DNA of 64,000 nt from the UHGV virus genome UHGV-0066004; one strand, written 5' to 3'. The notes beneath the pieces were generated by a model. It searched no databases. It saw only the letters and a program-made list of their open reading frames with translations, and was not told the DNA's origin. The DNA comes from a virus. Position numbers and translations under genes: made by a program. Each line of letters opens with the position of its first letter. Within the stretch, counting starts at the first letter, position 1. Shown one piece after another: positions 8,655-59,760 of the stretch.

Positions 8655-10070
8655 TTACCAGATATAACGGTCAATCATTACTGCTTTGAGCATTACACTG
8701 ATTGGGTCAAACTTCTCACCACCAAGCAGAGCTTTTAAAGTAGCTGGAGAAAAACCAGATACCATTGCTACACCGTTATCCTTAACAGACACTTCGCAAG
8801 TACCATTACGGTTTGCTAAGTACCAGAATACCAGTTGAGGCATTTCGTATCCAGCTTTTTTGTACTTACTCTGAATTGCTTCAAAGTTTGTACGACCGTT
8901 AGCTCCATCAACCTGATTGAACTCCATATCGGAGAAGATGATAAGCTTACTTGGCATATCTTTCTGAGTCAAGTTGTTTCTTTTACCTGTTTCAAGAATA
9001 CGGTCAAAAGCTGCTTGTAAGTTAGTTGAGCCATATTCAACGTGTCGCATCACCTGACGATGACGGTTTCGTAAATCACCACTCAGTTCGATGAAGTGAG
9101 GGTTTGTTGAATAAACCATCAACTCATTCTTAAAGCAACCTGTATTACGTTCTGCTACATACAATGCAAGTGAAACACCAATATCAAGAGCAGTAATTGA
9201 ACCAAAATTCACCCAAGACATTGAGCTTGAAACATCAGACATACACAAGATGTTTTCACCCTCTGCCATCCAGTTTGGTAGTGCTTTCCACTGCTCATTA
9301 GCAACATCTGCATTACCATACTTAACAGATTTAATTACATCGTATGGGTAAACAGCACCAGCATTAATCTTAGTCTCACCCTTTGATAAGGACTCGATGT
9401 AAGCTTTGTAGCGTTCTCCATCTTTGCGGTTAAACAGTTTTTGGTAACGTGCAGCAGCAAGTGAAGGAATCTTACTGTAGTCAATCTTACCAAACTCATT
9501 AGCAGAGATTTTTTGCTCAACTGTATCAGATAGTGCAGACAACAGTGTGCGGTACTCTTTCTCACTCAAGTTGGCAAACTTGCAGAAACGTTTTACAAAC
9601 TGCTTATGACGTGGTTTGACTCGTGGTAACCACTTAGCCGCCAAACCTGCTGTTGCAGGGTCTAGTAATGCTGCTTCTAGATGTTTGAAGGCATCTGTCT
9701 CGAAACAAGTACCTACGAAGATTTTGAAGTCATCAAAACGACCAAGTTCTGCAATCTTATCCATAATGCGAAGAACCTGCGTAGGCTCTAAAACTTTGTC
9801 TTCAATCGCTTGAAGTAAAACAGTTCTGAAGGCTTTACGCTCACCCATACCTTCTCGTACATCTCGCATATGAAGCAAAATACGAACTGCAACATCAACA
9901 TCCTCACGCAAAGCTTTGTAGAACAGGTCTGGTAAGATTTCTACGTTGCTACGGCTTGAACCAGCAGCTTTGTAAAAGTCTACAAGAGCAGACATTGATG
10001 AAGTATGGTTTACAGCACCATTTTCAGTTCGACCTGCATGAAGGTGCGCATGTTTAAATAATTCGCTCAT
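8655..10070 (-). CDS. von Willebrand factor A (vWA) domain protein, possibly TROVE/Ro-like
   Basis: 471-aa ORF; C-terminal MIDAS-type DxSxS (DVSSSM) and hydrophobic beta strands (LIIFSDMEF); TROVE assignment is a guess. Confidence 0.55.
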   Translation of the reverse strand: MSELFKHAHLHAGRTENGAVNHTSSMSALVDFYKAAGSSRSNVEILPDLFYKALREDVDVAVRILLHMRDVREGMGERKAFRTVLLQAIEDKVLEPTQVLRIMDKIAELGRFDDFKIFVGTCFETDAFKHLEAALLDPATAGLAAKWLPRVKPRHKQFVKRFCKFANLSEKEYRTLLSALSDTVEQKISANEFGKIDYSKIPSLAAARYQKLFNRKDGERYKAYIESLSKGETKINAGAVYPYDVIKSVKYGNADVANEQWKALPNWMAEGENILCMSDVSSSMSWVNFGSITALDIGVSLALYVAERNTGCFKNELMVYSTNPHFIELSGDLRNRHRQVMRHVEYGSTNLQAAFDRILETGKRNNLTQKDMPSKLIIFSDMEFNQVDGANGRTNFEAIQSKYKKAGYEMPQLVFWYLANRNGTCEVSVKDNGVAMVSGFSPATLKALLGGEKFDPISVMLKAVMIDRYIW

Positions 10071-10151
10071 ATTTTACTCTCTTCTCTCATTTGTTTGTTG
10101 ATGTGACAGACTTTAAAGCAACTTTGTAGAGTCTGTCAACACCTTTTAAAA

Positions 10152-10523
10152 TTATTTTTTGAGAGTCGCTACAGCAGAGAACGTTGGTTTGTTATCTGTC
10201 TGAGACTGACCACCATTATCAGGGGTCTTCTTAGTGTCTGCTGCAATCGCTTTCATCTCACCTGCTGAGTGAGTCATGATGGTTTTACCAGCCTCCATCA
10301 TCGACTTCAGGTTTACATCGTCAGTCGTCAAACCGAACTCTGCAAGCTTAGCAGCATCCCTTGTAACAACCGCCTCAAACAACTTTGCAGCAAACTCAGC
10401 AGAATTATCAATGGTCAGTTGAGCTTTTACAAGTGAGCTTTTGTTACGAGAGCCTTTTGGTCTTCCAGATGGGTTTCCAGACTGGCCTTTTTTAAACTGG
10501 CCTTTGTTTGTTCTGTTTTTCAT
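10152..10523 (-). CDS. hypothetical basic protein (GNPSGRPKG N-terminal motif)
   Basis: 123-aa ORF, first gene of minus-strand unit diverging from plus-strand cluster. Confidence 0.5.
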   Translation of the reverse strand: MKNRTNKGQFKKGQSGNPSGRPKGSRNKSSLVKAQLTIDNSAEFAAKLFEAVVTRDAAKLAEFGLTTDDVNLKSMMEAGKTIMTHSAGEMKAIAADTKKTPDNGGQSQTDNKPTFSAVATLKK

Positions 10524-10698
10524 TGGTATGCCTCTTATAAGACCTCTTAAAAGGCTTTTAAGATAAAAGATAGATATCCAGAAAGATATCTGTTTAAATA
10601 GCCTTTTTAGAGGAACCTTTTAAGTTATCTTCTAAGTATTTATAAGCCTACACCTTGTCAAGTACTTTGTCAACAACTTTTTTAACTTGCAATAGTTC

Positions 10699-10727
10699 TT
10701 GACTTGTTGTATGGATTACTGTACCAT
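10699..10727 (+). promoter_or_regulatory. candidate promoter TTGACT-N17-TACCAT
   Basis: Same TTGAC(A/T)-N17-TACCAT architecture recurs at 59757-59785; preceded by conserved CCTTGTCAAGTACTTTGTCAAC element at 10653-10674. Confidence 0.35.
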
Positions 10728-10915
10728 CTTACTTAAAGCTGTAGGTCTGCCTTGTTCTACAAAGGAGACTTAATGAGAAAATCAAATAAACCGAAGAAAG
10801 GTAAGAATACCAATCACTGTAAGGAATCAAAAAGGGTAGAATTAATCTACTATTCATCCTCTGAAATTGGTCTGTACCTGTTCTTTCAAAATTACAGAAG
10901 ACAAGAGGATTATCT

Positions 10916-11149
10916 ATGTGTAGTTCCCAATTAGAAATCGCAGATATTATAGATTTATATCAAACTGCAAAGAGTCATGGCTATATAACCTCAATTGGAA
11001 AGAATAGTCACTATGATGCTTTGACTGGAATGTATTTCAGGGCAATGGCTCAATCTAGTGAACAACACTTAGTGGTTTCTTCCAGTGAGTTTACTTCGTT
11101 TCTCTATTGCAGCAAAATTATAAATCGCAGGAGAACTGAAAAATGTTAA
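10916..11149 (+). CDS. hypothetical protein
   Basis: ORF in track, co-directional with downstream cluster. Confidence 0.3.
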   Translation: MCSSQLEIADIIDLYQTAKSHGYITSIGKNSHYDALTGMYFRAMAQSSEQHLVVSSSEFTSFLYCSKIINRRRTEKC

Positions 11150-17964: not shown

Positions 17965-18513
17965 ATGGAAAAAGATAACTTAAAAGAAGTTGAAGGTAAC
18001 TACCTAGTGCTTGACTGGAGTGATATCCGAGAAGCACTCTCCGAAGAAAATCTTGACTGGTTCGAACAAATTATCTTTGCAGTACGGCATAACAGAGAAG
18101 TTGAAAATGGTAAAGAGCCATTAGAAGGAATCTTTGTAGAGAGGTCTTATCCGTTCTATGAAGACACTTTACAAAAAGTTAAAATGTACTTTAAACAGAA
18201 GAACCGTAAAGTGGTCACTATGGTATCTCTTGGTGGACAGAGTATGTCTGTGATGGAAGATATCAACCCTAAGAGACCGAGTAAAGGTGTTTGTATAAAA
18301 ATCACAGGACATGAAGAGTATATCTCAGTGGCTGACTTTAGTGCATTCTGTAGTGGTTCTTGTGTCTTTAATGGTTTTCACTATGATATCCGAGTGTACC
18401 CAATCAAGGGAGATGATATCATGATGCAGATATTCGATAACAACAATGGATTCACTCATTTTTATCAGACAACTAAGCCATCCCTAAAAACAGTTCTGGA
18501 AACACTGATTTAA
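17965..18513 (+). CDS. hypothetical protein
   Basis: Start set to first ATG after upstream stop (MEKDNL). Confidence 0.45.
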   Translation: MEKDNLKEVEGNYLVLDWSDIREALSEENLDWFEQIIFAVRHNREVENGKEPLEGIFVERSYPFYEDTLQKVKMYFKQKNRKVVTMVSLGGQSMSVMEDINPKRPSKGVCIKITGHEEYISVADFSAFCSGSCVFNGFHYDIRVYPIKGDDIMMQIFDNNNGFTHFYQTTKPSLKTVLETLI

Positions 18514-18524
18514 AATATCTTAAG

Positions 18525-18552
18525 AGCCTCCTTAATTGGGGGCTTTTTAATT
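18525..18552 (+). terminator. intrinsic terminator ending the plus-strand cluster
   Basis: AGCCTCC-ttaatt-GGGGGCT stem followed by TTTTTAATTTTT. Confidence 0.6.
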
Positions 18553-19159
18553 TTTATAAAATTTTATCGGTTGTCCCAACCTCTGGGTCACCATCATATG
18601 TGAATAAAATATCTACCCTTCTTAACAACCTTCTTAATCTTACTCTCTATATAGTTATATAGTACTATATAGTATCTTAGTAACTATCTAGTGGTCTTAA
18701 TAGCCCTCTGTATAGCCCTTCTAAATAGCCATCTAAACACTCTTCTAACAAACCTTCTTAACAATCTATACAATCACCTTAACCATCTCTCTACATCCTC
18801 TTAGAAGCTCCTATACACCTCTTAATCTCTATGTTAGCTATGTTACTCTCTATAGGTGTTCACTAGGAAATACTAAGCCTCTATATAGACTGTTTTAACA
18901 AACTTAACAGGAATATCTTTACAGGCCTTATCTCACAAGGTCTAACACGGTACTAACAAGGTATCTTATAAGCCTGTTTCTACCTGTATTTTTAAAAGAC
19001 TGTATAGGTAATTATTCAGAATTTTAAAATTTTTATAAAATAGGACTATCAAGTCATTTTTTAGGGTCTTTGAAGGAACTGAAAAATATCTGTAGAAGAT
19101 GTATATCTGCTTGGTAGCCCTTAACAGCTCCCTTACAAGTACTTTGCAAAATTTTAAAA

Positions 19160-19400
19160 TATCCTTAACAATCTCTTAACAGCTCTCACATCTTCTTAAC
19201 AACTCTTCAAAGGTCTTAACAGACTCTTAACAGAACTAACAAGGGTGTAACAGTTTCTTAACAGTTGATACATAGGCTTAACAGAATCTTAACAGATGAC
19301 TAACAAGAGCTAACAAGTTAATTTTAAAGAGTTATTTTGTTAAGATAATTAACAAGTTTCTAACAAGTGTTTAATCTTTTTAACAAGCTATTAACACGGT
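19160..19400. repeat. dense cluster of CTTAACA(G/A) / CTAACAAG iteron-like words
   Basis: More than 15 copies of cttaacag, ctaacaag, ttaacaag within ~240 bp of non-coding DNA. Confidence 0.6.
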
Positions 19401-19668
19401 CACTATCTCTGGTCTTATCGTTCCCTTCTCCTCTTAGTGATTCTTTAAACATACCTCTTAAAAGCTCTCTATAGCTCTTTATAGGCTCTTTTAAGCATCT
19501 TCCTAGTATTTACCCCTCAACTGTATGGATAGCTCTTTATAAGGCTTTACAGGAGCTTTTAAGGCTATGCCAAAGATTCTTACAAGGCTTTTACGTGGTC
19601 TTAACAGAGATTTAACAAGGGGCTAACAAGTTGCTAACAAGTGCCTTAAAAGCATAACTATGTAGGGT

Positions 19669-19720
19669 TTGTTAAGAAATTGTTAAGAAATTGTTAAGAA
19701 AATGTTAAGAAAATGTTAAG
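19669..19720. repeat. tandem 11-12 bp repeat (TTGTTAAGAAA) x ~4.5
   Basis: ttgttaagaaa ttgttaagaaa ttgttaagaaa atgttaagaaaa tgttaag; reverse complement of the CTTAACA word. Confidence 0.8.
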
Positions 19721-20144
19721 GGGGCTAGCATTTACGTAACTTTATAGCCTCTTTTACGTAACTTTTAAGCTACTTTTAAGCCCCTATAACATACTTTTAA
19801 GACAATAACAAGCCCTTTATAGTAGTTCACAAGAATACTAACGAGATGATAAAGCTTACACCCTTATAAGATTCTTTTAAGGCTCTGGGAAGCTCTAGGA
19901 AGGGCTTTTTAGAGTGGGTTAATATGATTGCTTAAGTTAGGTTGATAAGGCTGTTATAGAGCTTTATAGAGCGTTTTAGTGGTTGCCCTTCCCTTTCGGG
20001 TTATGGGCTTACATTTAAGGGAAAGATTAAGTTGATTTGATAAAAGGCTATAGAGTAGACTATAGAGTTATTGCTTTTTAAGGTCTGGTAAAGTTCTGAC
20101 TTGTTAGGTGGGTTTTAAGATTCTGGAAAGGAATTTGATAGACG

Positions 20145-23463: not shown

Positions 23464-23736
23464 TTACACTAAATGCAGCTTTTTACCTTTTACCATGATG
23501 TAACTCGATGCGCTATTGCTACAAACATCTTGATAAATTCTGCGCAAACGTCCTTCGTAGTGTACTTTCCAACTAGTTGGAATCTTTTTACCATATCCGG
23601 TAGCAGTTTTTTGGAGTCCTGCTACTTGCCAATCTAAGATATGTTGCTCAGCTTGTAAATCCTCAAAGCACATTACACCATCTACATAGTGACGTAAAGT
23701 TACATTTAAAGTGCGACCGTTGTTAGTAGTATACAT
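23464..23736 (-). CDS. small early-type protein
   Basis: 90-aa ORF with type A leader. Confidence 0.5.
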   Translation of the reverse strand: MYTTNNGRTLNVTLRHYVDGVMCFEDLQAEQHILDWQVAGLQKTATGYGKKIPTSWKVHYEGRLRRIYQDVCSNSASSYIMVKGKKLHLV

Positions 23737-25783: not shown

Positions 25784-25850
25784 TTTTGAATCTCCAGTTT
25801 AGGATTTTATTTAGTGGGGAAGGTCATTCCCTCCCCGTTGATGTAAATAT
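25784..25850 (-). promoter_or_regulatory. type A leader (first of array)
   Basis: GGGGAGGGAATGACCTTCCCC hairpin and AGGAGATTC SD. Confidence 0.5.
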
Positions 25851-26039
25851 TAGATAACCACGTTCAAAGAGTCAATAAAAATTTTAAAAATATTTTTGGC
25901 AAAACTGTAATGAAACGGGTGCGCACGACTACCACAAAACAGAACGCAAATCAAGAATTATTTTTCAATCCGCTACAAATTTTTCTCTTGACTTTTGGGG
26001 AGAGGAAGAGGGGGAGAGGGGTTGGGCTGGCTGTCTATA

Positions 26040-26230
26040 AAAACCTACCTGCACAATTCTAAAATGATTTTTCTTGCCCGACCTGAGCGGGGTCTGCACG
26101 TTTTGAAAATGAAAAAGCTCTTTGGAGATTACCTGCACAGTTTGAAAATGAATTTTCTCTTTGGAGTTCAAAATTCTCTCTACAGATTTCTCTACAGAAC
26201 TCTACCTGCACAATTCTAAAATGAAAAAGC
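26040..26230. repeat. four direct ~45-bp repeats (CTGCACARTTYTAAAATGA...)
   Basis: ctgcacaattctaaaatga (x2), ctgcacgttttgaaaatgaa, ctgcacagtttgaaaatgaa in non-coding DNA upstream of early array. Confidence 0.7.
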
Positions 26231-26297
26231 CCTCCTTACCTGAAAAATTTACCAGATAAGAAAGGCTTAGGCTATTGTGAATATACTACAGAGTTTC

Positions 26298-27083
26298 TTA
26301 GTTCTTTGCGTCTAAGAAGGTAACTTCTGGTGAAGAGAAGATTGCCTCGATATCCTCATCAGTTCTTGCATAGATATAAGCTTCTGCATCACTACCAAAT
26401 GTTACAGCAATTCTGTGATTGCTCTTTGACAGGTGGGTAACTAGAGCGTTACTTAGAGACATCTTTTCAACCGGAGGGTTACTTTGATGTATCTTACCTT
26501 TTCTTCGTCTGAAGAGGGTAACTGCGTTATCTGTGAACACTGCTACACCTGCAAAGTATTCTGGTTCACAGTAGTTCTTCCAACCTGAGCGTAACTTGTG
26601 GTACATCTCGCCTTCATAGACATACAGATAAACATCTACACTCTTCATCACCTGATTGATGATAACTGTGATGGCTTGAGGGTCAAGTCCACCGATACCT
26701 GCACCAATCATAGGTAAACCAACTTTCTTCAACTGATTAACTTCACAGTATCTGTTAAGCTGTTTCAAAGATGACTCTAAAGCACTGTATCGGGCATCTT
26801 TACCAGTCTTAAGCTGAGTGTAAAGGTTAGCTATACGACCTTGTTTTAAGCGTGCTACAGAGAAATTACCTAGTAAATTCTCACAGGGTTTGTGACCTAT
26901 ACCACCTGCATAGAGATAAACTTCTGTATCGGTCTCATATGCTTTTGGGTAAAGTTTAGAAATCTTGTCAGCGATACCTGCGCCCATTAGGTTCATGCAG
27001 TTACAACCATGACCAATGATGTCAAACTTACCTTTATCAAATGCAGCAAAGATATCACCATTGATGATTTTTACAATACCCAT
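26298..27083 (-). CDS. macro-domain protein (ADP-ribose binding or hydrolase) with C-terminal extension
   Basis: N-terminal NGDIF...DIIGHGCNCMNLMGAGIADKI and LPMIGAGIGGL match macro-domain glycine-rich motifs. Confidence 0.6.
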   Translation of the reverse strand: MGIVKIINGDIFAAFDKGKFDIIGHGCNCMNLMGAGIADKISKLYPKAYETDTEVYLYAGGIGHKPCENLLGNFSVARLKQGRIANLYTQLKTGKDARYSALESSLKQLNRYCEVNQLKKVGLPMIGAGIGGLDPQAITVIINQVMKSVDVYLYVYEGEMYHKLRSGWKNYCEPEYFAGVAVFTDNAVTLFRRRKGKIHQSNPPVEKMSLSNALVTHLSKSNHRIAVTFGSDAEAYIYARTDEDIEAIFSSPEVTFLDAKN

Positions 27084-28636: not shown

Positions 28637-29101
28637 TTAACCGAGGACTTTAGCAAGGATATTCGCAGCCATCGAAGAAGCTTTTGCAGCAGCAACTACG
28701 CCAGCTTTGACAGTGCTATCCTTAATAGCAGATACCGTTGCAGCATCAGTAAAGAGATAAGTGATTGTTTTAGAACCACTTGTAAAGGAAAGCATAAGAG
28801 TAGTTTCCAGATTGAAAGAGCGATACGGAGCACCTTCTTTAACGATACCTTCAGCACCTAACTCTGAAGCCTTGCCCATATCATAGATAGTCATCAGGTT
28901 TTCTTTGTGTGCTGTGGTTGAGCCAGAACCTTTTACGTGTTTCTTAACATTCAAAAGAGCACGATACTCTCGGATGTTACCGTCTGCTTTTACGTTGACA
29001 GCACGGAAAATTTTACCCTCAAAGTTGCTCTTGATAATGTTACGAACTACTTCAGATTTGTTTGCCGTAACGTCCAGTGCTACCGTAATGATATTGTTCA
29101 T
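28637..29101 (-). CDS. hypothetical protein
   Basis: 154-aa ORF. Confidence 0.5.
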   Translation of the reverse strand: MNNIITVALDVTANKSEVVRNIIKSNFEGKIFRAVNVKADGNIREYRALLNVKKHVKGSGSTTAHKENLMTIYDMGKASELGAEGIVKEGAPYRSFNLETTLMLSFTSGSKTITYLFTDAATVSAIKDSTVKAGVVAAAKASSMAANILAKVLG

Positions 29102-30333: not shown

Positions 30334-30433
30334 TGGTTCTCCTGTTTAGTTTATCGTGACAACAATTATACAGCACTCTGCACAAAATACAAATAAAAAA
30401 GGCCGCCGAAGCAGCCTTTTAAGAAATTACTTA

Positions 30434-40119: not shown

Positions 40120-40686
40120 TTACATAAGGTTATTTTTCTTACAATTGTCAAAATGATATCGAGTCATGTTACCAGCGCCACCAGTCATGCCACAATGAGG
40201 ACAGGTTTTCTTTTCCTTTGGCTTTTTTCCGGCTTCTGACATCTTCTTCCTTGTTTCTATAGACCTTTTACAACCTTTTGATTTTGTATTTCCTATTTGG
40301 GATTCCCCTAATCGTCTTCGATGTTCTTCAGTGAAAACCCTACCTTTATTCACAATAGATAAAGCTTTCGAGTTTAAAGCCCTTACCTTTTCATAGTCTC
40401 TGGATGATATTTTCCTATCTAGGCCATCATGAGCTAACCTGTGCCATGCGAACCATAACTTATGATTGTTTGGATACATCTTAACCAGTAATTTATGAGC
40501 TATATAATGCTCTCTAGGTGTAAGTAAAGCAATATTATCTCCACTAATTTTATCGCCACCTAGACATACTGGTATGATATGGTGTCTTTCATAACCCTTA
40601 CCTTGACATTTGTAGTATGTCAGGGGCACACCCCTTTCAGAATGTGCCTTCTTAATAATTGCATTATATATTAGTTTGTAATTCAT
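40120..40686 (-). CDS. HNH homing endonuclease (free-standing, downstream of nrdD)
   Basis: ERHHIIPVCLGGDKISGDNIALLTPREH HNH motif plus C-terminal CPHCG zinc finger; start set to ATG after nrdD stop. Confidence 0.75.
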   Translation of the reverse strand: MNYKLIYNAIIKKAHSERGVPLTYYKCQGKGYERHHIIPVCLGGDKISGDNIALLTPREHYIAHKLLVKMYPNNHKLWFAWHRLAHDGLDRKISSRDYEKVRALNSKALSIVNKGRVFTEEHRRRLGESQIGNTKSKGCKRSIETRKKMSEAGKKPKEKKTCPHCGMTGGAGNMTRYHFDNCKKNNLM

Positions 40687-40693
40687 TTGTATA

Positions 40694-42838
40694 CTACATA
40701 GAAACCCTATCCTTAATTTCTGCCATCTTAGCGTCATTCATTCGAGACTGACCTTTAATTTTTGTGAATGACAAGTACCCGCACACCCTGTTAATCACAG
40801 AGATATCATGTGAATGGCAAACCTCACATTCTTCAACATCAGCTTTTGGTCTGTTACCACAATGTTCACAGATTGCTAAGTCAAAGTTAAGTCCCTGATA
40901 GAAACCTTTCAACATACCTCTCGTAATACAACTCTTAAGTGCTGATAAGTTTTCTGGATTAGCCACTCTTACATATTGGATTCTTCCGCCTCTACAGATA
41001 TGGAAGAAGGGTTCTTCTAAGTCCTGCTTCTCAAATGGTGTAATGTCTGCTGCAACATTCATATGGAAACTGTTTGTAAAGTATTCCTTGTCAGAAACGC
41101 CTTTGATAACGCCAAACATATCTCTGAACTGTTTTAGCTGAGTTCCACAAAGTGATTCTGCTGGAGTGCCATAGACTGCATATAAGAAGCCATCTTCATT
41201 TTTAAACTCTTCAGTCTTCATGTTGATATATTCCAGAACATCATATGCAAAACTACAGCTTCCAACTTCATGAAGTCGTTTACCTTCAGCAAGAACAGAT
41301 AGCTCATCAAGCGCAGTAACCCCAAAAGAAGCTGTGAAGGACTTCACGATATCCCAGCCAACCTTATCAGTAGGTTTCTTATTCCCTTTGTACAGACCAC
41401 CTTGTGTAAATGCAAGAGGGTTAGAACTTGCTGGCATATTAGCAATCATTTCGTAGCGTTTCTTGTGGAAGCTGCGAATCATCTCTAGGTACTTATCAAG
41501 CTCTTTCCAGAAATCTAAACCATTCTCTTTAGAATACTGGTAAATCATTGGTAAGTTCAAAGATACAGCACCAATGTTAGCACGACCAACGTAGAACTCT
41601 TCCCCATTCTCGTTAAAATATGGAGATAGGAAGGCTCTGCAACCCATCGGTGAAATAACCTTACCAGAACGCTCAAAAGCCTCTGCTACAGCACCATGAC
41701 CAGATACACTTAAGAAATCTGGATACATTGCTTTAGAGCAACACTCAATAGCTTTACTGTACAGGTGGCCTTGACAGATATTCTCATCGTGTCTCTTCTG
41801 GTCATAAATATAAACCAGTTTAGGAAATACAACAGGTTTCTTGCTCTTACCTTGTCCATTCATACGAACATCTAGGAGAGTACTTGCAATCATGTATTGT
41901 AGTCGGTTATCTTCATTGGACATATCTGAGTCAAGTAACCCGAATGTCAAAGTTGTAAATGCAAAATCCCCACGACTACAAGGTACAGTGTTTAGTTTCA
42001 TTTCAAGTGACTGGAAACCTTGAGTCAGTTCAATCTGTAGCTGCTCCATGACATAATTGTGGTAATGTTCTTTAGGAATACCATAAGATGCTGCTTTCTC
42101 AGCATGATAGCGTAGAGACTTCTTAGCATACGGCACAAGTACCTTATCAATCTCTGCTAAAGTAAAGCCACCAAATTGCTGTGCAGTTGCTGAAAGAACT
42201 ACGTCACCAATAACCTGTAAGGCTGACAGTACAGACTTCGGTTCACAATATTCAATGCCAGACATTTCAAAGCCACCTTTCAGGACTTTACCAATGTCAA
42301 ACAGGCAACAGTTGATACCACCAAAGATTAAGTCTCTTAAATCATGGATATAGATAAACCCTTTTTCAATGGCTTCAAGTTCCTCTGGTGTTAAATGGTA
42401 CTGTTTAAAGATTTCTTTAGTCAGGTAACCACGAATAATTGAGCCTTTTGTAGAAATTAAACTGCTGTCAAAGTTAGCATTCTCTCTGTCACCTAAGAAG
42501 AGTGTATCTCTGGTCTTCTGGTAGAGTTCATCCCAATTTTGAGCAACTTCTTTACGGTAATTTCTGTATGTTGAGTAAGACTCATAAATTTCGTGATTGA
42601 CTTCTGCCAAAGCACCCTCAACAATACTGTGAATATCGTTTACAGAAATTAGCAAATTATTCTGCTTAGTGGACTTTACCAGAATCCTCATAAATGCTGA
42701 CTCAAGAGCTTGAGTAACATCTGGTGGAAGCTCTTTATAACCAACTCTGTTAGCTGACTTTGTGACTGCTGCTAAAACTTTTTTGATATCAGGTTCTTCA
42801 AGTGAGCCGTTCTTTTTAATAATCTGTACTTTGTTCAT
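40694..42838 (-). CDS. nrdD: anaerobic ribonucleoside-triphosphate reductase
   Basis: 714 aa, C-terminal zinc ribbon CEHCG...CEVC and glycyl-radical motif RVCGYL. Confidence 0.9.
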   Translation of the reverse strand: MNKVQIIKKNGSLEEPDIKKVLAAVTKSANRVGYKELPPDVTQALESAFMRILVKSTKQNNLLISVNDIHSIVEGALAEVNHEIYESYSTYRNYRKEVAQNWDELYQKTRDTLFLGDRENANFDSSLISTKGSIIRGYLTKEIFKQYHLTPEELEAIEKGFIYIHDLRDLIFGGINCCLFDIGKVLKGGFEMSGIEYCEPKSVLSALQVIGDVVLSATAQQFGGFTLAEIDKVLVPYAKKSLRYHAEKAASYGIPKEHYHNYVMEQLQIELTQGFQSLEMKLNTVPCSRGDFAFTTLTFGLLDSDMSNEDNRLQYMIASTLLDVRMNGQGKSKKPVVFPKLVYIYDQKRHDENICQGHLYSKAIECCSKAMYPDFLSVSGHGAVAEAFERSGKVISPMGCRAFLSPYFNENGEEFYVGRANIGAVSLNLPMIYQYSKENGLDFWKELDKYLEMIRSFHKKRYEMIANMPASSNPLAFTQGGLYKGNKKPTDKVGWDIVKSFTASFGVTALDELSVLAEGKRLHEVGSCSFAYDVLEYINMKTEEFKNEDGFLYAVYGTPAESLCGTQLKQFRDMFGVIKGVSDKEYFTNSFHMNVAADITPFEKQDLEEPFFHICRGGRIQYVRVANPENLSALKSCITRGMLKGFYQGLNFDLAICEHCGNRPKADVEECEVCHSHDISVINRVCGYLSFTKIKGQSRMNDAKMAEIKDRVSM

Positions 42839-48623: not shown

Positions 48624-49121
48624 TCAAGCACAATTTGCTTTCATTACCTTATGGATTCTTTTTTCAGCATCTTCATAAGTTTCTTTAGTAATAAACTTAA
48701 TTGCTGCAATATTGGCATTGTAGAAGAGTCTGAGCTTCGAGTCAATCCTTTTTGTCATTACATCGAACTTATGTTGAAGGTTTGCTTCACCATAAACTAG
48801 ACCACCTTTTGTGTAGTAGGTTTGGATAATGTAAAAGTCAAAAAACTCTTTTCCAAAGCTTTCAATATCTTTTTTGATATACTCAGAAGAAGTCTCATAA
48901 GTCATCCAATCACTTTCCTTAGTGACTATCTTCTTCCGAGTCTTACCAGCAACTTTTCTTTTGGTCACACTGTTAAGCTGCTTCTTACCCAAATAGTACT
49001 GTCCAGTCTTTTTGCAGTACACTAGGTAGACAAAACCAAAGTGCTTTGCTGGGTCAACTTCACCACATAGTGAAACCCAATGTCCATATTCAGGGCAATT
49101 GCCAAAACCTTTAACCTTCAT
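48624..49121 (-). CDS. GIY-YIG homing endonuclease (Seg-like)
   Basis: FGFVYLVYCKKTGQYYLGKK matches GIY-(10)-YIG spacing. Confidence 0.55.
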   Translation of the reverse strand: MKVKGFGNCPEYGHWVSLCGEVDPAKHFGFVYLVYCKKTGQYYLGKKQLNSVTKRKVAGKTRKKIVTKESDWMTYETSSEYIKKDIESFGKEFFDFYIIQTYYTKGGLVYGEANLQHKFDVMTKRIDSKLRLFYNANIAAIKFITKETYEDAEKRIHKVMKANCA

Positions 49122-49618
49122 TCATAAGCTTCTCCGTGATTTGAAAACTCTTTATGTAGTTCTTCTCTTTTCTTTTTGACAACTGATTCAGCCTCAGTGA
49201 TAGAGTCAAATAAACCTAGATGGTAGCATACTTTATTATGCTTGACTTGTGCAGCCCATCTACCTCTTTGCTTGTGGTAATATACACCCTTCACACCAGA
49301 CTTATTATCTTTTCTTTTGACTGCATTGCAGTTGTTGTCTGACCTGCTACACTCTCTCAAATTGTCGAACCAGTTGTCGTGCCTGATACCATTCTTGTGG
49401 TCAACAAATTTTGGGAGGTAGCCTTTCATATACAAGAATGCCAGTCTGTGTGCTGCATATCTTTTTCCGAAGAGTTTTATATAGATATAACCACTATGGT
49501 GTTTAAGACCTGCTACTGAGCCAGCTTTGGCCTTACCTCTTCTACCAACTAACCAAGTAAAGACCCCTGTTTCGGGGTCATAGTGCAGGTATTCTTTAAG
49601 AGTTTGTTGAGTTAACAT
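49118..49618 (-). CDS. HNH/AP2-type homing endonuclease
   Basis: Paralog of 59233..59760 (shared LHYDPETGVFTWL, AHRLA, C-terminal AP2-like KGV...GRW motif). Confidence 0.7.
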   Translation of the reverse strand: MLTQQTLKEYLHYDPETGVFTWLVGRRGKAKAGSVAGLKHHSGYIYIKLFGKRYAAHRLAFLYMKGYLPKFVDHKNGIRHDNWFDNLRECSRSDNNCNAVKRKDNKSGVKGVYYHKQRGRWAAQVKHNKVCYHLGLFDSITEAESVVKKKREELHKEFSNHGEAYE

Positions 49619-50642
49619 TTGGTGTCCACCCATACTTATCAAAAGTGAAATCGTCTTTCTTGTTTCTTTCCTGATAAGCTAAGAAAAAGTGTTGCTGCAT
49701 TAACTCTAAAGGTGTTCTGGTAATTGTTTGACCATCCCATGATACATAAGTGTATGACTCTTTCTTAGCATAAAGTTCATAGATAGCATCAAGGCACTCT
49801 TTATAAGTATTTTTACCTTCAAGGGCTTTCATTACAGTAGCCTTACCAACACCCTTTAAACCAAAATAATTATCAGCATTGTCACCAGCCACAGCTTGAT
49901 AACAAAGGAATTTAAAACCTACACCAACTGTCTTCTTAGCTTTTGGTGTTGATTTTATTGGGCAATCCCAAATTTCACCTACGTTGTTGTCAGCAATGAA
50001 AATCAAAGGCGACTTTTCATAGGTCATATCAATGCAGTAAGTCCCTTCAGCTTGGCGAAGGTCTTTATCAATACTCATCAAGGCAGCCTTTTTACCCATC
50101 TTTTCAGCTTTAGCAATAACGATAGAATCGGCTTCAAATCCATCAAGAATTAGTTTGAACTCTGGTCTTGACAGAAGATACTCACGACAAGCAACTAAGT
50201 GTGTTGGTGTGACAGCATCTTTACGGTTCCCTTGATATTGGTGCTCAAGACCTTTAATGTCTTTATGTTTATGCACACCTTTCTCTGTTAAATAACCTAC
50301 CCAAGTTCTCTCTTTACCAACAATCTTAAGCCATTCCTGAAGCACCTGTTGAGTAGCCATGATAGCTTCTTTTTCACTCTTAGCTTCTTTCCAAGTCTGT
50401 CTTTCCCATTCATCTTCATCAAATGTCAGGCCAAGCTCTTCCACAAGGATTCTCTGGTCTGCTAACCATCTTGCAGCATCTTTCGCATTATCAAATAGCT
50501 CAGATTCTTCTGCTGTGAGTTTATTGATGTATTTATATTTTGCTTTCTCAACTACACAAGCACCTTTATAGGCAATACTGTCAGAGTCAATAAAAACATG
50601 TGTAACTGAATCGGGAAGTTTTGTTAATGTGTACTTCTCCAT
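49596..50642 (-). CDS. 5'-3' exonuclease / flap endonuclease (RNase H-like)
   Basis: Acidic clusters FIDSDSIAY and MSIDKDLRQ typical of FEN/PIN-fold metal sites. Confidence 0.55.
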   Translation of the reverse strand: MEKYTLTKLPDSVTHVFIDSDSIAYKGACVVEKAKYKYINKLTAEESELFDNAKDAARWLADQRILVEELGLTFDEDEWERQTWKEAKSEKEAIMATQQVLQEWLKIVGKERTWVGYLTEKGVHKHKDIKGLEHQYQGNRKDAVTPTHLVACREYLLSRPEFKLILDGFEADSIVIAKAEKMGKKAALMSIDKDLRQAEGTYCIDMTYEKSPLIFIADNNVGEIWDCPIKSTPKAKKTVGVGFKFLCYQAVAGDNADNYFGLKGVGKATVMKALEGKNTYKECLDAIYELYAKKESYTYVSWDGQTITRTPLELMQQHFFLAYQERNKKDDFTFDKYGWTPNVNSTNS

Positions 50643-55842: not shown

Positions 55843-56265
55843 TTATTTCTCTCTCAGTTGGTTAAGTTTCTTTCTAGAGCATTTTAAGTTTTCAGATGAA
55901 GAAAAGTCAAGTGTCTTTTCAGAACGTGGATAGTAATGCCTGTCCCAAGAAGTTTCAACATCGTTAATCAGTGATGCTAGATTACACAGGTCTGTACCAC
56001 TTTGCAACCTCTTTTTAAGAGAATCTAGTAAAGCAACTGTATCTTTAGCTTTACGTCTAGCTATAGCAACGTCTTTCATATGCTCAAACACAGAGCATTT
56101 TAAGTCATCTTCATAGTCTTCTGATAACTCTATTTCATGTTGTATATCAACCATTCTCCTGTGATGGTGAGCATATTCCCGTTGAGCAGCAATGTCAAGT
56201 TCTTCCAACTTCTGCAAAGCTCTAACAAAGTCAGCTATGTCTGGGTGAACAAACATTTTCTGCAT
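55843..56265 (-). CDS. hypothetical protein
   Basis: 140-aa ORF, first gene of minus unit diverging from polymerase. Confidence 0.5.
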   Translation of the reverse strand: MQKMFVHPDIADFVRALQKLEELDIAAQREYAHHHRRMVDIQHEIELSEDYEDDLKCSVFEHMKDVAIARRKAKDTVALLDSLKKRLQSGTDLCNLASLINDVETSWDRHYYPRSEKTLDFSSSENLKCSRKKLNQLREK

Positions 56266-56441
56266 GTAAGCCTCTTTTAAGTAACTATTAAGTTTTAATC
56301 TTTTATCTTAACGTATTCTATACGTTATACTTTAAAGCTTTTTAAAAGCTATTAAATAATCTTTTAAGAGCTTTAAAGTATCTGTATAGTTAAACTGTTA
56401 AGTAACCTTTTAAGTAAAAACCCACTTCGCAAAGATTAACA

Positions 56442-56477
56442 CCTTGTCAAGTACATTGTCAACTTGCTTTTTATAAT
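56442..56477 (+). promoter_or_regulatory. conserved CCTTGTCAAGTACATTGTCAAC element plus TATAAT upstream of polymerase
   Basis: Near-identical 22-bp element also at 10653-10674; spacing to TATAAT is not canonical for sigma70. Confidence 0.4.
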
Positions 56478-56522
56478 TTTTTGCAGTAATGTATGAGGTT
56501 AATGATTTTAGAGGGAGTAAAA

Positions 56523-59222
56523 ATGGAAAACGTAGATTTTAAAAACTTACATTTAGTTGGTGATACAGAAACTGATGGTTTACTCCTTGAGTTCACTAAA
56601 GTTCACGTAATGGCCTTTGCAGACTATAAATCTGACGATGAAGAGCCACCTGTATGGGTCTTTACAGATGAGCCTATCCTCGGTCACAAGTACACTAAGT
56701 ACATTAAGGGTGGTTTACGTGAAGGTATTGAGTTTGCGTTGAAGGCAAAACGACTTTGTATCCATAATGGTCTCGGTTATGACTGGTGGGTTTTCAATCA
56801 CATTGCACCGGATTTATGGAACTTTGATAATCCAAAATGTAAGCCGTGGAGTAATTTCTTTCAGGACTCTCTTATCCAGTCTCGTGTTCAGTGGATGGAT
56901 AGACCAACTCCAAAGGGTTATAAAGGTGCTCATGGTTTGGCTGCATGGGGTGCTCGTGTTGGTGTTCGTAAACCAGAGATTGAACATTGGGGTGTGTGGA
57001 ATGCAGAAATCTTCACTCGTGTTGTAGAAGATATCCGTATTAACGCCAAAACTAAACGGGCGCTTGATAACGAGTATCTCAAGCTTAAGAAGTGTGGTAT
57101 AGACACTTATGAAACTTACATGCGAGCTAAAGAGACATCTTTCTGGATGAGCCAACAAGCTATTAATGGCTGGAAAGCTGATAAAGAGCTTATGGAGTTC
57201 CATGTAAAGGAGCTTGACAAGTTGACTAATGAGCTTGCTTCAGAGGTTGAACCACATCTACCTCCAACTATTAAGACCAAAGGTAAAGTCACTGGAGAGG
57301 AGTTTGCAAAAGCTTGGAATGAGTATGTTGAAACATTTGGTCATGCAGATGGACTGAAGAGAATTACCAAGTACCCTAAGACAAAGTATCGTCAGCAGGT
57401 ACGTAATGGCGAGATGCAGACATACGAAATCAAACCATTTGGTAAGCCAACTACAAAGATTTTTAACATTGAGAAAAGGAATTGCTATACACCAACCAAC
57501 ACTGTAACTGGTGAAGAGTACAAGGAAGGCTTTGTAGCAATGAAGGATGCTCGTGCAATTTGCAATGAGTTGAACGCAAAGATTGGTAAGAAATGCAAAG
57601 ACTGGAAGCCAGTAAAAACAGTCAAAACTGTGAAGTACTATAACAGCCACGTTGTTAACCACTTTGAACTTGAGTCAAGTCGCTACACAGGTTTGATTGA
57701 TGCACCATATACACCAATTGAGTTCGAGGTTTCTCGTATGACTCAGGTAGCAGTTGTTAAAGACTACTTGAAATCAGTTGGTTGGATTCCAGATGACTGG
57801 AACTACAAGAAAGACTCAGATGGTCGTCCTGTCAAAGTTTGTCGTTTCAAAGACAATAAAAAGATGATTACAAAACATCCTAAGTGGCAGGAAATGGTTG
57901 AGCGGTGTGGTTTGAGTTATGTTGAACATGAAGGTGTCCAGTACATTGAGCATAACTGGTCTGTGAAGAAATACACAGATTTGCTTGAGCCTTGCTTAAT
58001 CCGTACTTCACCAAAACTTACCGAATCATCCTATGATACGATTGAAGGTGAGCTTGGACAGAAGATTGCGAAATACTACACTTTGATGCACAGACGCAGA
58101 ACTATTGAGAACTCAAAGGATGATGAAAAAGGTTGGTTGAACCAGATTCGTCCTGATGGTCGCCTTAGTGCTGGTGCAATGGTGTTTGGTACTTCAACTG
58201 GACGTATGACGCAATATGGTATTGTAAACGTACCGTCTGGTGCTGCTGTCTATGGGGAACCAATGAGGGCAGTGTGGATTTGTGAGGAAGGTACTAACGT
58301 TGTCTCTGTAGACATGAACTCAGCCCAGCTAGTTCTCCTTTGTAACTTTATGGGTGATAAAGATTTCACCAAAGCGGTAACGCAAGGTAAAGAAGAAATT
58401 GAGTTTACTCGTCAAGAAGATGGACGCTATTACTGCAAACATTTTGATGAGTACCTCAACCCAGAGATTGATAAGTACCTTCGCTATGACTCTGAGAATG
58501 ACCTGTACGTTGTCTATTCAGGGACTGATGCGCATACACTGAACAGTATCTACTTTAGCTTGAACGATGAGCAGGACATCTTGACTTGTCGAGCTACTCA
58601 GGATGAGAATCTTCTCCATGAGATTAGCAAGGGTCGTAAGAAAGCTAAGAATGGTATCTATGCACTGCTGTTCGGTGCAGGTGATGAGAAGTTTGCTAAG
58701 ACGATTAAAGCTGCAACTACTCAGGAAGGAGCACTGACTAAACAGACTTACTTTATTCGTTTGCCTAAAATTAAGAAGCTGCTAGATGACTTGGAAGCTG
58801 ACTACAAAGCAACTAAAAAGGCACTTGAAGAGGTGTTTGGTAAGACTGCTGCAATCTCTAAAGGGGGTTTTGTAAAGGTTGCTGGAGCTTGGTTGTGGTG
58901 TAAATCTCCACATAAGTTATTGAATTATTTGCTCATGGGTTCGGAAAGTCAGATTCAGAACGAGGCAATTAACCTTGCTTGCCGTCGTATGATTGACGAA
59001 GGTTTGATGAAGTTGAACGGTCGCAAACCAGCTATAGGTGCTCGTTTATTGTGCTCCTATCACGACGAGACAAGTTGGGAATGCCCAGAGAGTATGACGG
59101 CAGAGGTGAAGGCTGTCACTGATTGGTATTACGGGCAAGCCTCTAAGAACTTAGGGCTAAAGAGTGAAACACTGGTAACTGGTACTGGTAAGGTTGGTAA
59201 ATCGTGGTTGGAAGTGCATTAA
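56523..59222 (+). CDS. DNA polymerase, family A (T7 gp5-like)
   Basis: Exo motif DTETDG, HNGLGYDW, and segments paralleling T7 gp5 (AHGLAAWG, APYTPIEF, KSVGWIPD); start set to ATG after GAGGGAG. Confidence 0.85.
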   Translation: MENVDFKNLHLVGDTETDGLLLEFTKVHVMAFADYKSDDEEPPVWVFTDEPILGHKYTKYIKGGLREGIEFALKAKRLCIHNGLGYDWWVFNHIAPDLWNFDNPKCKPWSNFFQDSLIQSRVQWMDRPTPKGYKGAHGLAAWGARVGVRKPEIEHWGVWNAEIFTRVVEDIRINAKTKRALDNEYLKLKKCGIDTYETYMRAKETSFWMSQQAINGWKADKELMEFHVKELDKLTNELASEVEPHLPPTIKTKGKVTGEEFAKAWNEYVETFGHADGLKRITKYPKTKYRQQVRNGEMQTYEIKPFGKPTTKIFNIEKRNCYTPTNTVTGEEYKEGFVAMKDARAICNELNAKIGKKCKDWKPVKTVKTVKYYNSHVVNHFELESSRYTGLIDAPYTPIEFEVSRMTQVAVVKDYLKSVGWIPDDWNYKKDSDGRPVKVCRFKDNKKMITKHPKWQEMVERCGLSYVEHEGVQYIEHNWSVKKYTDLLEPCLIRTSPKLTESSYDTIEGELGQKIAKYYTLMHRRRTIENSKDDEKGWLNQIRPDGRLSAGAMVFGTSTGRMTQYGIVNVPSGAAVYGEPMRAVWICEEGTNVVSVDMNSAQLVLLCNFMGDKDFTKAVTQGKEEIEFTRQEDGRYYCKHFDEYLNPEIDKYLRYDSENDLYVVYSGTDAHTLNSIYFSLNDEQDILTCRATQDENLLHEISKGRKKAKNGIYALLFGAGDEKFAKTIKAATTQEGALTKQTYFIRLPKIKKLLDDLEADYKATKKALEEVFGKTAAISKGGFVKVAGAWLWCKSPHKLLNYLLMGSESQIQNEAINLACRRMIDEGLMKLNGRKPAIGARLLCSYHDETSWECPESMTAEVKAVTDWYYGQASKNLGLKSETLVTGTGKVGKSWLEVH

Positions 59223-59232
59223 TGGTGACAAA

Positions 59233-59760
59233 ATGATTACACAAGAACGTTTAAAGGAACTACTACACTATGACCCCGAAACAGGGGTCTTTACTTGGCT
59301 TCGTAGAGAGGGTGACTCAAGGGCTGTTAAAGTCTTTAATAGTAAGTACGCAGGACAGGTAGCGGGGAGCATCCAGATTGACTCAACTGGTCATAAGCAG
59401 ATTACTATCTATTTTGACAAGAAAGCACATAAAGCACACAGACTTGCATGGCTGTACGTGTATGGTAGGCTACCGAAAGGTGTTATTGACCATATTAATG
59501 GGGACTCCCTTGATAACAGGGTTGTAAACTTAAGAGAAGCAGATGACTGCCAAAGTGCTTGGAATAAAAGCAAGTTATCTACCAATAAATCAGGCTATAA
59601 GGGTGTAAGCCTGAAGAAGAAGTCTGGTAGGTGGGTTGCGCAAATAAGCTATAAAGGTAAAAAGATATCATTAGGTTACTATGACACACCAGAAGAAGCC
59701 CATAAAGCTTACTGTGAAGCTGCTATTAAACTCCACGGAGAGTTTGCAAAACTAAGTTGA
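59233..59760 (+). CDS. HNH/AP2-type homing endonuclease
   Basis: Paralog of 49118..49618; 33-bp identical nucleotide stretch in inverted orientation. Confidence 0.7.
   Translation: MITQERLKELLHYDPETGVFTWLRREGDSRAVKVFNSKYAGQVAGSIQIDSTGHKQITIYFDKKAHKAHRLAWLYVYGRLPKGVIDHINGDSLDNRVVNLREADDCQSAWNKSKLSTNKSGYKGVSLKKKSGRWVAQISYKGKKISLGYYDTPEEAHKAYCEAAIKLHGEFAKLS

Follow-up and report, generated by a model that had tools for sequence, protein, structure and literature searches.

The origin iterons of plasmids and of phage lambda are phased repeats of about 22 bp, and the marbox sites of MarA, SoxS and Rob follow the consensus AYnGCACnnWnnRYYAAAYn, which serves below as a lead and not as a test. In phage T5, DNA injection stops at 7.9% of the genome, in a conserved untranslated repeat region (Repeat Region 3) that carries DnaA boxes (bioRxiv 10.1101/866236). 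The repeats described here lie in a 64,000 nucleotide stretch of virus genome UHGV-0066004 (the whole stretch that was analysed, called “the window” below), which is Felixounavirus DNA; the 2 kb around the repeats are 99% identical to Felixounavirus genomes (phages ekra and LF82P5) and share ~93% identity with Salmonella phage Felix O1. Phages of the Felix O1 type are classic tools for typing Salmonella and are often included in therapeutic and food-safety cocktails.

The Felix O1 genome paper states that transcription timing and the start of replication are unknown for phages of this type, and it gives other direct repeats and a terminator but not the array (PMC3185647). No Ounavirinae or Felixounavirus paper on transcription starts, origins or iterons was found in the literature searched, where the array is undescribed, and the Bas63 knockout-library paper offers no usable data on this gap.

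The non-coding gap and its flanking genes

The minus strand carries every gene between ~20.5 kb and 56 kb, so transcription across the array runs from high to low coordinates. The initial annotation had placed the repeats in a 0.5 kb non-coding gap between a macro-domain gene and the first early gene, and this is accurate: the gap is 514 bp long (25784-26297), the gene beside it has a Pfam Macro match, and the array occupies what is probably the one long untranscribed gap on this genome arm. The features of the gap and its borders, apart from the repeats themselves, are as follows:

26298-27083, minus strand: macro-domain protein gene, 261 aa (Pfam Macro, E = 3.9e-7)
26227-26268, minus strand: intrinsic terminator hairpin of the macro gene, 17 pairs, then TTTTTCATTTT (terminator scan)
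25997-26026, plus strand: G/A-rich tract, C/T-rich on the transcribed minus strand (from the sequence)
25925-25996, no strand assigned: AT-rich module between the array and P1 (TCAAGAATTATTTTTCAATCCGCTACAAATTTTTCTCTTGACTTTT), conserved in an alignment of 28 loci
25847-25875, minus strand: sigma-70-type promoter P1, TTGACT-N17-TAATAT (consensus scan; annotated as a promoter in phage ASO1A)
25595-25783, minus strand: first small early gene, 62 aa, orphan (the first gene differs among related phages in the alignment)

The order of elements in the direction of transcription is thus macro gene, terminator, repeat units 4-3-2-1, C/T-rich tract, AT-rich module, P1, 5′ leader hairpin and first small gene. 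Residues 5-168 of the macro protein match solved PDB macrodomains, and its C-terminal ~90 residues have no PDB sequence match. In the transcription direction the macro gene is always immediately upstream of the array, and gene order is identical in M7, Moogle and Felix O1. Its terminator, which ends the lysis/polynucleotide-kinase/macro operon, is Felix O1 terminator t13 (Table 2 of PMC3185647) and is annotated also in phage ASO1A; the T-run of this terminator is the A5 tract of unit 4 on the other strand. P1 serves the first early gene and so opens the terminal run of small early genes, its hexamers are conserved in the alignment, and the region upstream of it is AT-rich. The array was initially described as lying upstream of the early-gene array, and this holds in the sense that it is 175-360 bp upstream of P1; the correction is that both flanking genes are on the minus strand and that the array comes after the macro-gene terminator.

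The adjoining G/A-rich tract, also present as first described, varies in length among relatives (a 6-nt indel), and in one Felixounavirus lineage (“type B”) its place is taken by an unrelated segment of ~55 bp, with the array and the AT-rich module both retained. The repeats therefore do not require this tract as a partner. The AT-rich module, which is kept in the type B phages, is unalignable in Kolesnikvirus.

A genome end or packaging site was suspected at this locus, as the Andreotti record starts 40 bp before unit 1. In the Felix O1-like phage UAB_Phi87 a direct terminal repeat of 608 bp has been sequenced experimentally (PMC4837284, Figure S1); it aligns to 19111-19695 of the window (83% identity), 6.9 kb from the array, and this rules out a genome end here.

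Four direct repeats with an asymmetric two-part core

The motif CTGCACRNTTYKAAAATGA matches the plus strand four times with 0 mismatches (at 26049, 26094, 26133 and 26206), where dinucleotide shuffles gave a mean of 0.03 matches and 0 of 100 shuffles reached four; tolerating 2 mismatches brought no extra match in the 64-kb window. These are the four direct repeats of ~45 bp, sharing one motif, that had been noticed at the outset, and their description stands: all copies are in one orientation with start-to-start spacings of 45/39/73 bp, a repeat finder recovers the same copies, and the similarity spans ~40 bp per unit. Tandem Repeats Finder reported nothing on the window because the copies are interspersed and not tandem. 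A count matrix for the unit, built from 77 distinct copies in related phages, gave the four window copies 34-39 bits and the next best site in the 64 kb 11.3, and the complete 87-kb genome of the relative SLAM_phiST56 gave the same picture of a single-locus array. The four units are:

26046-26086, plus strand: unit 1, TACC-TGCAC-AATTCTA-AAATGA-TTTTT, then second block CTTGCCCGACCTGA (matrix 34.2)
26091-26131, plus strand: unit 2, GGTC-TGCAC-GTTTTGA-AAATGA-AAAAG, then CTCTTTGGAGATTA (matrix 36.6)
26130-26170, plus strand: unit 3, TACC-TGCAC-AGTTTGA-AAATGA-ATTTT, then CTCTTTGGAGTTCA (matrix 35.1)
26203-26243, plus strand: unit 4, TACC-TGCAC-AATTCTA-AAATGA-AAAAG, then CCCTCCTTACCTGA (matrix 38.8)

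The consensus of the unit reads TACC, TGCAC, seven A/T-rich variable bases (RNWTYKR), AAATGA, a 5-base tract that is all A or mostly T, and then C-Y-C-T-Y-Y-n-G-A-S-Y-T. Its invariant core is the asymmetric, two-part TGCAC-N7-AAATGA, and the second block is semi-conserved; for example, the unit 1 stretch TGATTTTTCTTGCC-GACCT is retained in unit 2 of Erwinia phage M7. Unit 3 is followed by a 32-bp filler with two CTCTACAGA(T/A) mini-repeats.

The best-scoring site elsewhere in the window is a possible fifth, weaker copy:

30377-30401, plus strand: TCTGCAC-AAAATAC-AAATAA-AAAAG (matrix 11.3)

The core of this site, TGCAC-N7-AAATAA at 30379-30396, lies directly after the rIIB terminator, 4.2 kb from the array, and the site overlaps the -35 and spacer of the promoter of the next operon, which includes a lipoprotein/SLT-like gene, a polynucleotide kinase, the spanins and the macro gene. 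Read on the minus strand, it has GTGCAG (30383-30378), 7 nt, and TATAAT (30370-30365). The Mooglevirus fifth site scores 23.7 bits and has the same register (GTGCAG-N7-TATAAT) though the surrounding bases differ; the site is variable in two lineages (GTGTAG) and is missing at the equivalent place in Kolesnikvirus (Erwinia phage M7). Its fixed register with the promoter -10 in Felixounavirus and Mooglevirus suggests a binder that acts on transcription.

Conservation of the array

The initial annotation had named conservation in related phages as a check, and it is found there. When IMG/VR was scanned for pairs of motif cores separated by 15-45 bp, 37 loci came up, of which 30 are in Ounavirinae genomes (84-91 kb) and 7 are unrelated coding repeats. 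The ~30 Ounavirinae loci come from four genera, Felixounavirus, Suspvirus, Mooglevirus and the Erwinia-infecting Kolesnikvirus, and in all of these array-bearing phages the array is flanked by the macro gene and the first small gene. Four copies in the same order are almost always present, the Si3-like phages (L015 and L043) having three, without unit 3; the spacing is lineage-specific (45/39-41/73-77, with 45/41/75 in Mooglevirus and 39/37/37 in Kolesnikvirus). With the Erwinia phages, blastn aligns only positions 266-368 of the 513-bp gap query (26050-26152 of the window, units 1-3).

Over 26 non-redundant non-Kolesnik sequences, non-consensus bases make up 2.1% of TGCAC, 2.4% of AAATGA, 14.3% of the 7-nt spacer and 16-19% of the rest of the gap, so the half-sites are ~7 times less variable than the spacer between them; the invariance is partly circular, as the copies were gathered by pattern, and an independent positional alignment gives the same result. 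The spacer stays A/T-rich while its sequence varies between copies and between phages. No other non-coding element on the early genome arm is as sharply conserved as the array. Its left edge is a mosaic junction, with two alternative upstream segments, varying first genes and, in one contig, a replaced unit 1.

Among 185,579 bacterial and archaeal species genomes, a scan for paired sites gave only eight hits to the motif, all unrelated and none in Enterobacterales. Because it is absent from these genomes, the array is taken to be a phage-lineage element.

Search for a binding protein

Comparison of 50 window proteins with Pfam and/or PHROGs revealed no recognisable sequence-specific regulator; these scans gave homing-endonuclease DNA-binding modules (AP2 and NUMOD3), orphan families and a sub-threshold WYL_2 match. 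With MarA and SoxS as queries, phmmer gave only E > 0.5 against the six-frame translation of the window. Six early-block proteins are common to Kolesnikvirus, including a basic protein of 90 aa, and a 154-aa protein of the upstream operon is common to it as well. AlphaFold models of these two conserved basic proteins (154 aa, 28637-29101, pLDDT 81; 90 aa, 23464-23736, pLDDT 74) had no significant PDB fold match and no known DNA-binding fold. The consensus sites of IHF, Fis, CRP, FNR, NtrC, sigma-54, LexA, Fur and type I restriction were compared with the units by eye, and none fits all four.

Proposed function and alternative explanations

Invariant half-sites, a variable spacer and a copy number and order conserved in four genera at one locus per genome favour an array of binding sites. 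Two invariant blocks about one helical turn apart, a spacer constrained in composition and a flanking A/T tract would be the signature of an asymmetric site for one protein. Judged from the sequences, the four repeats are best read as double-stranded DNA sites for one sequence-specific protein, with an operator- or boundary-type regulatory platform as the most likely role, a reading that we put forward tentatively and at somewhat less than even strength. The position of the fifth site at a promoter and that of the array between a terminator and a promoter favour such a platform. The candidate binder, encoded by phage or host, would contact two successive major grooves at each site, so that four protomers might sit side by side on the array, and the bound complex could control transcription over the terminator/P1 junction, either by preventing read-through from reaching the early block or through regulation of the flanking promoters. 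The array might also cooperate with the weaker fifth site 4.2 kb away at the promoter of the upstream operon. Support for a regulatory platform is modest: two lineages have a variant fifth site, Kolesnikvirus lacks the site altogether, and 175-360 bp separate the array from P1. We infer both protein binding and a regulatory rather than replicative role from sequence comparison; the initial annotation had offered enhancer-like sites or iterons, and and the array of protein-binding sites that these two suggestions have in common appears to stand.

The main rival, which we regard as possible but rather unlikely, is that the repeats are iterons of a phage replication origin, in which an initiator would bind the four repeats, bend the DNA at the A/T tracts and open a nearby AT-rich stretch, perhaps with help from P1 transcription or, in the Erwinia phages, from a promoter that points into the array. 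Origin iterons can be recognised as at least three direct repeats of 17-22 bp, and the array has four copies of an 18-19-bp core in one orientation at one locus per genome; their spacing, however, is irregular and unphased (37-77 bp), where helical phasing would give ~21-23 bp or multiples of it. Each unit has an A/T tract, and the array has an AT-rich region and a strong promoter at a distance of 150-200 bp, but no AT-rich unwinding element appears to abut it, the nearest AT-rich stretch (~150 bp off) being the P1 upstream region. The G-rich, R-loop-prone tract that adjoins the array in most lineages is dispensable (above). In Kolesnikvirus a plus-strand promoter, TTGAC(G/C)-N18-TATACT, reads into the array and each unit has a 9-mer that departs from the DnaA box TTWTNCACA at a single position, and the replisome of these phages is T7-type, without a mapped origin; yet an initiator-like family was found in no neighbouring or other scanned gene. 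Two other non-coding places look more origin-like, namely the terminal-repeat region and the very AT-rich gap at 56266-56492, from which the DNA-polymerase and primase/helicase operons diverge; a different dense repeat system is present in both. GC skew has no origin-type switch at 26 kb, and it is dominated by gene orientation and thus uninformative. Four direct repeats with a ~19-bp core are as typical of origin iterons as of regulatory sites, and this counts against the regulatory reading. A landing pad for a host protein of the DnaA-like or MarA/SoxS/Rob type, including a T5-like DNA-entry checkpoint that borders the early block on its inner side, seems improbable to us. Measured from the physical right end mapped in UAB_Phi87, the array lies ~6.9-7.1 kb in, or ~8% of the ~87-kb genome, and the interval between array and end holds only small early genes with host-type promoters, in a position like that of the T5 stop region (above); two-step DNA transfer has, however, never been reported for Felix O1-type phages, and the array contains direct repeats only, without the inverted repeats or palindromes of T5. 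Its TGCACA equals the TNCACA end of the DnaA box, to which the Kolesnikvirus units (CTATGCACA and TTATGCACG) have one mismatch, but the window units (ACCTGCACA and GTCTGCACG) have 3, where a DnaA box is allowed at most one. GCAC, an A/T-rich spacer and a second element resemble the layout of a marbox, but the best match, judged by eye, agrees at 9 of 14 specified positions, with GCAC and W matching and the second element different, and the motif pair is absent from bacterial genomes in the paired-site scan, whose scope leaves room for single host sites. A role as a cis-acting checkpoint for the array, which borders the terminal early-gene block on its inner side at ~8% of the genome length from the physical end, is very unlikely in our estimate; if it were true, a host or early phage protein occupying the four sites would make DNA entry pause, gate it or physically insulate the block, and Felix O1-type myoviruses would use a T5-like staged delivery of host-takeover genes.

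The array does not appear to be a set of sigma-70 promoters, a coding region, or a structured RNA or single-stranded DNA element, and it is not a genome end. Leftovers of serial duplication downstream of the terminator, or a recombination-promoting “linker” between mosaic modules, would have no binding function; the A/T tract that unit 4 has in common with the terminator T-run and the mosaic junction at the left edge of the array agree with such an origin, but neutral duplicates would not preserve both half-sites when the intervening 7 nt drift in each unit, nor would they persist as the sole stretch of non-coding DNA that can be aligned across genera with ~52% identity here, so that we consider this explanation improbable too. 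A sequence acting as RNA, within read-through or antisense transcripts, could be a structured RNA, a series of back-up terminators or, jointly with the C-rich tract, a loading region for Rho. Such an element is suggested by minus-strand units 2 and 4, which read CTTTTTCATTTT and look terminator-like, and by the minus-strand RNA of the adjacent tract, which is C-rich and G-poor as Rho prefers. It is nonetheless very improbable, since folding is that of shuffled sequence (z = 0.00 for the plus strand and 0.11 for the minus strand), Rfam gives no matches at E ≤ 1, paired covariation is absent and the invariant blocks are mutually non-complementary, A5 and T5 alternate among the units so that a U-run is possible in only half of them, and the C-rich tract is replaced in one lineage. 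The multiple early promoters proposed in the initial annotation, whether for sigma-70 or for a phage-modified polymerase, fare no better and are highly unlikely: the units do have TAAAAT- and GAAAAT-like hexamers, and the fifth site overlaps a genuine-looking promoter, but a consensus scan found no sigma-70-like match in 26040-26230 on either strand, and early promoter P1 lies elsewhere (25875-25847). The -10-like hexamers (TAAAAT, GAAAAT, TGAAAT and GGAAAT) vary at their critical first two positions while the flanking AAATGA is invariant, the invariant TGCAC and AAATGA are 7 bp apart and do not coincide with -35 and -10 positions, with no partner hexamer at 16-18 bp and no -10 at a fixed distance after the units, and the motif is upstream of no other gene in the genome and thus defines no promoter class. 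The least credible explanation, to which we give almost no weight, is that the array belongs to a small gene that has internal repeats and codes for a protein. In Felixounavirus several frames run across the array for 50-60 codons without a stop, and a CDS is annotated there in three records (wV8 gene 13, SLAM_phiST56_091 and Moogle115), but these CDSs differ in strand and frame, 2-bp indels and spacings of 43, 41, 73-77 and 37 bp break any common frame while leaving the nucleotide motif intact, Kolesnikvirus has no open frame across the array, and a ribosome-binding site is absent.

A distance of 175-360 bp from P1 is far for a simple operator, an observation that counts against the array being a regulatory binding platform. 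The array is an experimental handle, in that a pull-down of any protein that binds it should identify the missing regulator or replication initiator. It bears on annotation, since a spurious gene is called across it in several database records, and on engineering, where its recombination-prone junction is an attractive insertion site at which an insertion might disrupt a functional element.

Comparison with known systems

Like the origin iterons of lambda ori, F, P1 and pPS10, the array consists of four direct repeats in the same orientation, with a core of ~18-19 bp, at a single locus; it shares with them A/T tracts that could bend DNA and a non-coding site near a strong promoter. It is unlike iterons in that its units are 37-77 bp apart and unphased, and that it apparently has neither a recognisable adjoining initiator gene nor an abutting unwinding element. 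The monomer sites of the AraC/XylS family, of which the marbox is one, resemble the units in being asymmetric sites of ~20 bp with GCAC, an A/T-rich spacer of ~7 bp and a second, A-rich element, a layout in which one protein touches two adjacent major grooves; furthermore, the fifth site overlaps a -35 region, an arrangement that class II marbox promoters also have. The second element of the array is AAATGA, however, and not YAAA, its best unit agrees with the marbox at 9 of 14 positions, and no MarA/SoxS-like protein is found in the window.

The array and the T5 stop region are both conserved untranslated repeats at the inner edge of a terminal host-takeover block, ~8% from the physical end, both are better conserved than the neighbouring genes, and both have TNCACA-type elements, which in the array are near-consensus in Kolesnikvirus. 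In T5, nested inverted repeats and palindromes fill 1.2 kb within a terminal repeat of 10 kb, whereas the Felix O1-type array is four simple direct repeats outside a terminal repeat of ~0.6 kb; the likeness is one of position only. The operators OL and OR of lambda differ from the array sites, which are asymmetric, in being palindromic dimer sites beside the repressor gene; they resemble the array in that several sites for one protein are clustered and a weaker site lies at a promoter kilobases away, and the cooperation of array and fifth site that this parallel brings to mind is conjecture. None of these families of elements is matched by the array in every respect, and we rate it as an undescribed example of a familiar kind of element.

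Sequence Variation and Annotation at the Array

The G/A tract at 25997-26026 contains at least four G runs and, judged from this sequence, could possibly form a G-quadruplex or an R-loop. Its length is polymorphic by 6 nt, and in one Felixounavirus lineage it is swapped for ~55 bp (GGTGGGTGCAGGTGGG...) that bear additional TGCAC half-sites (these variants are given for L009, L022, L027, L038, L040 and L041 among our numbered array loci of related Ounavirinae phages). Two other loci are notable around unit 1 of the four-unit array. Positions 1-210 of L031 (IMG/VR contig 3300045988_004180) are GC-rich, non-phage-like sequence that stands in place of unit 1 and everything upstream and begins within the second block of that unit; it reflects either chimeric assembly or a genuine insertion or recombination junction. 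The phage Andreotti record (L002 1-95) starts with GCAGACCACACTCAGGTCTGGC, 40 bp ahead of unit 1, where its sole annotation is "repeat_region". GCAGACCACACTCAGGTCTGGC repeats, in inverted orientation, the stretch separating units 1 and 2, and an 18-bp inverted repeat therefore brackets unit 1 in this phage.

Public records place hypothetical proteins over the array (wV8 gene 13, SLAM_phiST56_091 and Moogle115), and these differ in strand and frame from record to record. Such calls are probably spurious. Array-crossing reading frames in the window include the following:

26059-26211, minus strand, reading frame across the array
25995-26219, plus strand, reading frame across the array

Promoters, Leader Hairpins and Neighboring Genes

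Features near the motif sites and in the upstream operon are:

25816-25836, minus strand, G/C-rich hairpin GGGGAGGGAATGACCTTCCCC in the leader of the first early gene, between its sigma-70-type promoter P1 and the ribosome-binding site
28637-29101, minus strand, gene for a basic protein of 154 amino acids (pI 9.7)
30420-30397, rIIB terminator, with the promoter TTGTAT-N16-TATAAT directly after it

The leader hairpin is the counterpart of repeat DR_6 annotated in phage wV8. The promoter after the rIIB terminator (30365-30420 region) serves the lipoprotein/SLT-like gene, and the conserved GTGCAG inside its spacer is possibly part of a fifth, weaker site of the array motif. Kolesnikvirus genomes have a strong sigma-70-type promoter, TTGAC(G/C)-N18-TATACT (L006 1792-1870 of Erwinia phage M7; also L033), that lies on the strand opposite the flanking genes, is directed into the G-rich tract and array, and has a 5' hairpin of the same kind as those in early transcripts; an equivalent of this promoter is absent from Felixounavirus.

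The Felixounavirus and Kolesnikvirus versions of the 154-amino-acid protein share 60% identity, and the protein's structure is predicted (pLDDT 81) to be an alpha/beta fold with a long helix at the C-terminal end. Its similarity to WYL/Sm-like domains is sub-threshold only (Pfam WYL_2, E = 0.066), and the Foldseek matches to CapW, BrxR and DriD are all non-significant. Annotations of the macro-domain protein (26298-27083, minus strand) vary between phosphatase and O-acetyl-ADP-ribose deacetylase, and the ~90 C-terminal residues of the protein (170-261) match no solved structure. Four homing-endonuclease genes are present (40120-40737, 48624-49121, 49118-49642 and 59194-59760): one NUMOD3, one GIY-YIG SegE-like and two HNH_3 genes that also encode an AP2 DNA-binding domain. 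Of these last two, one directly follows the DNA polymerase gene.

A Second Repeat System

The palindrome CTTWWAAG clusters in the three principal non-coding regions of the window where the coding strand switches. Its density is 10 matches per kb at 10000-11000, 18 at 19000-20000 and 10 at 56000-57000, compared with 0-6 in the rest of the window; both strands are counted, and every palindromic site is thus scored twice. The divergent gap that separates the DNA-polymerase operon from the primase/helicase operon (56266-56492), which is very rich in AT, is one of the three. CTTWWAAG is absent from the array at 26 kb; it is a second, distinct repeat system, and looks a better candidate than the array for an origin or packaging signal.

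Transcription of the genes on either side converges on the 1.6-kb non-coding region 18500-20100, which is filled with dense ~11-bp-periodic repeats:

within 18500-20100, repeat CTTAACAR
within 18500-20100, repeat CTTTTAAG
19669-19723, four tandem copies of TTGTTAAGAAA

This region also contains, at 19111-19695, the homologue of the mapped direct terminal repeat of the Felix O1-like phage UAB_Phi87.
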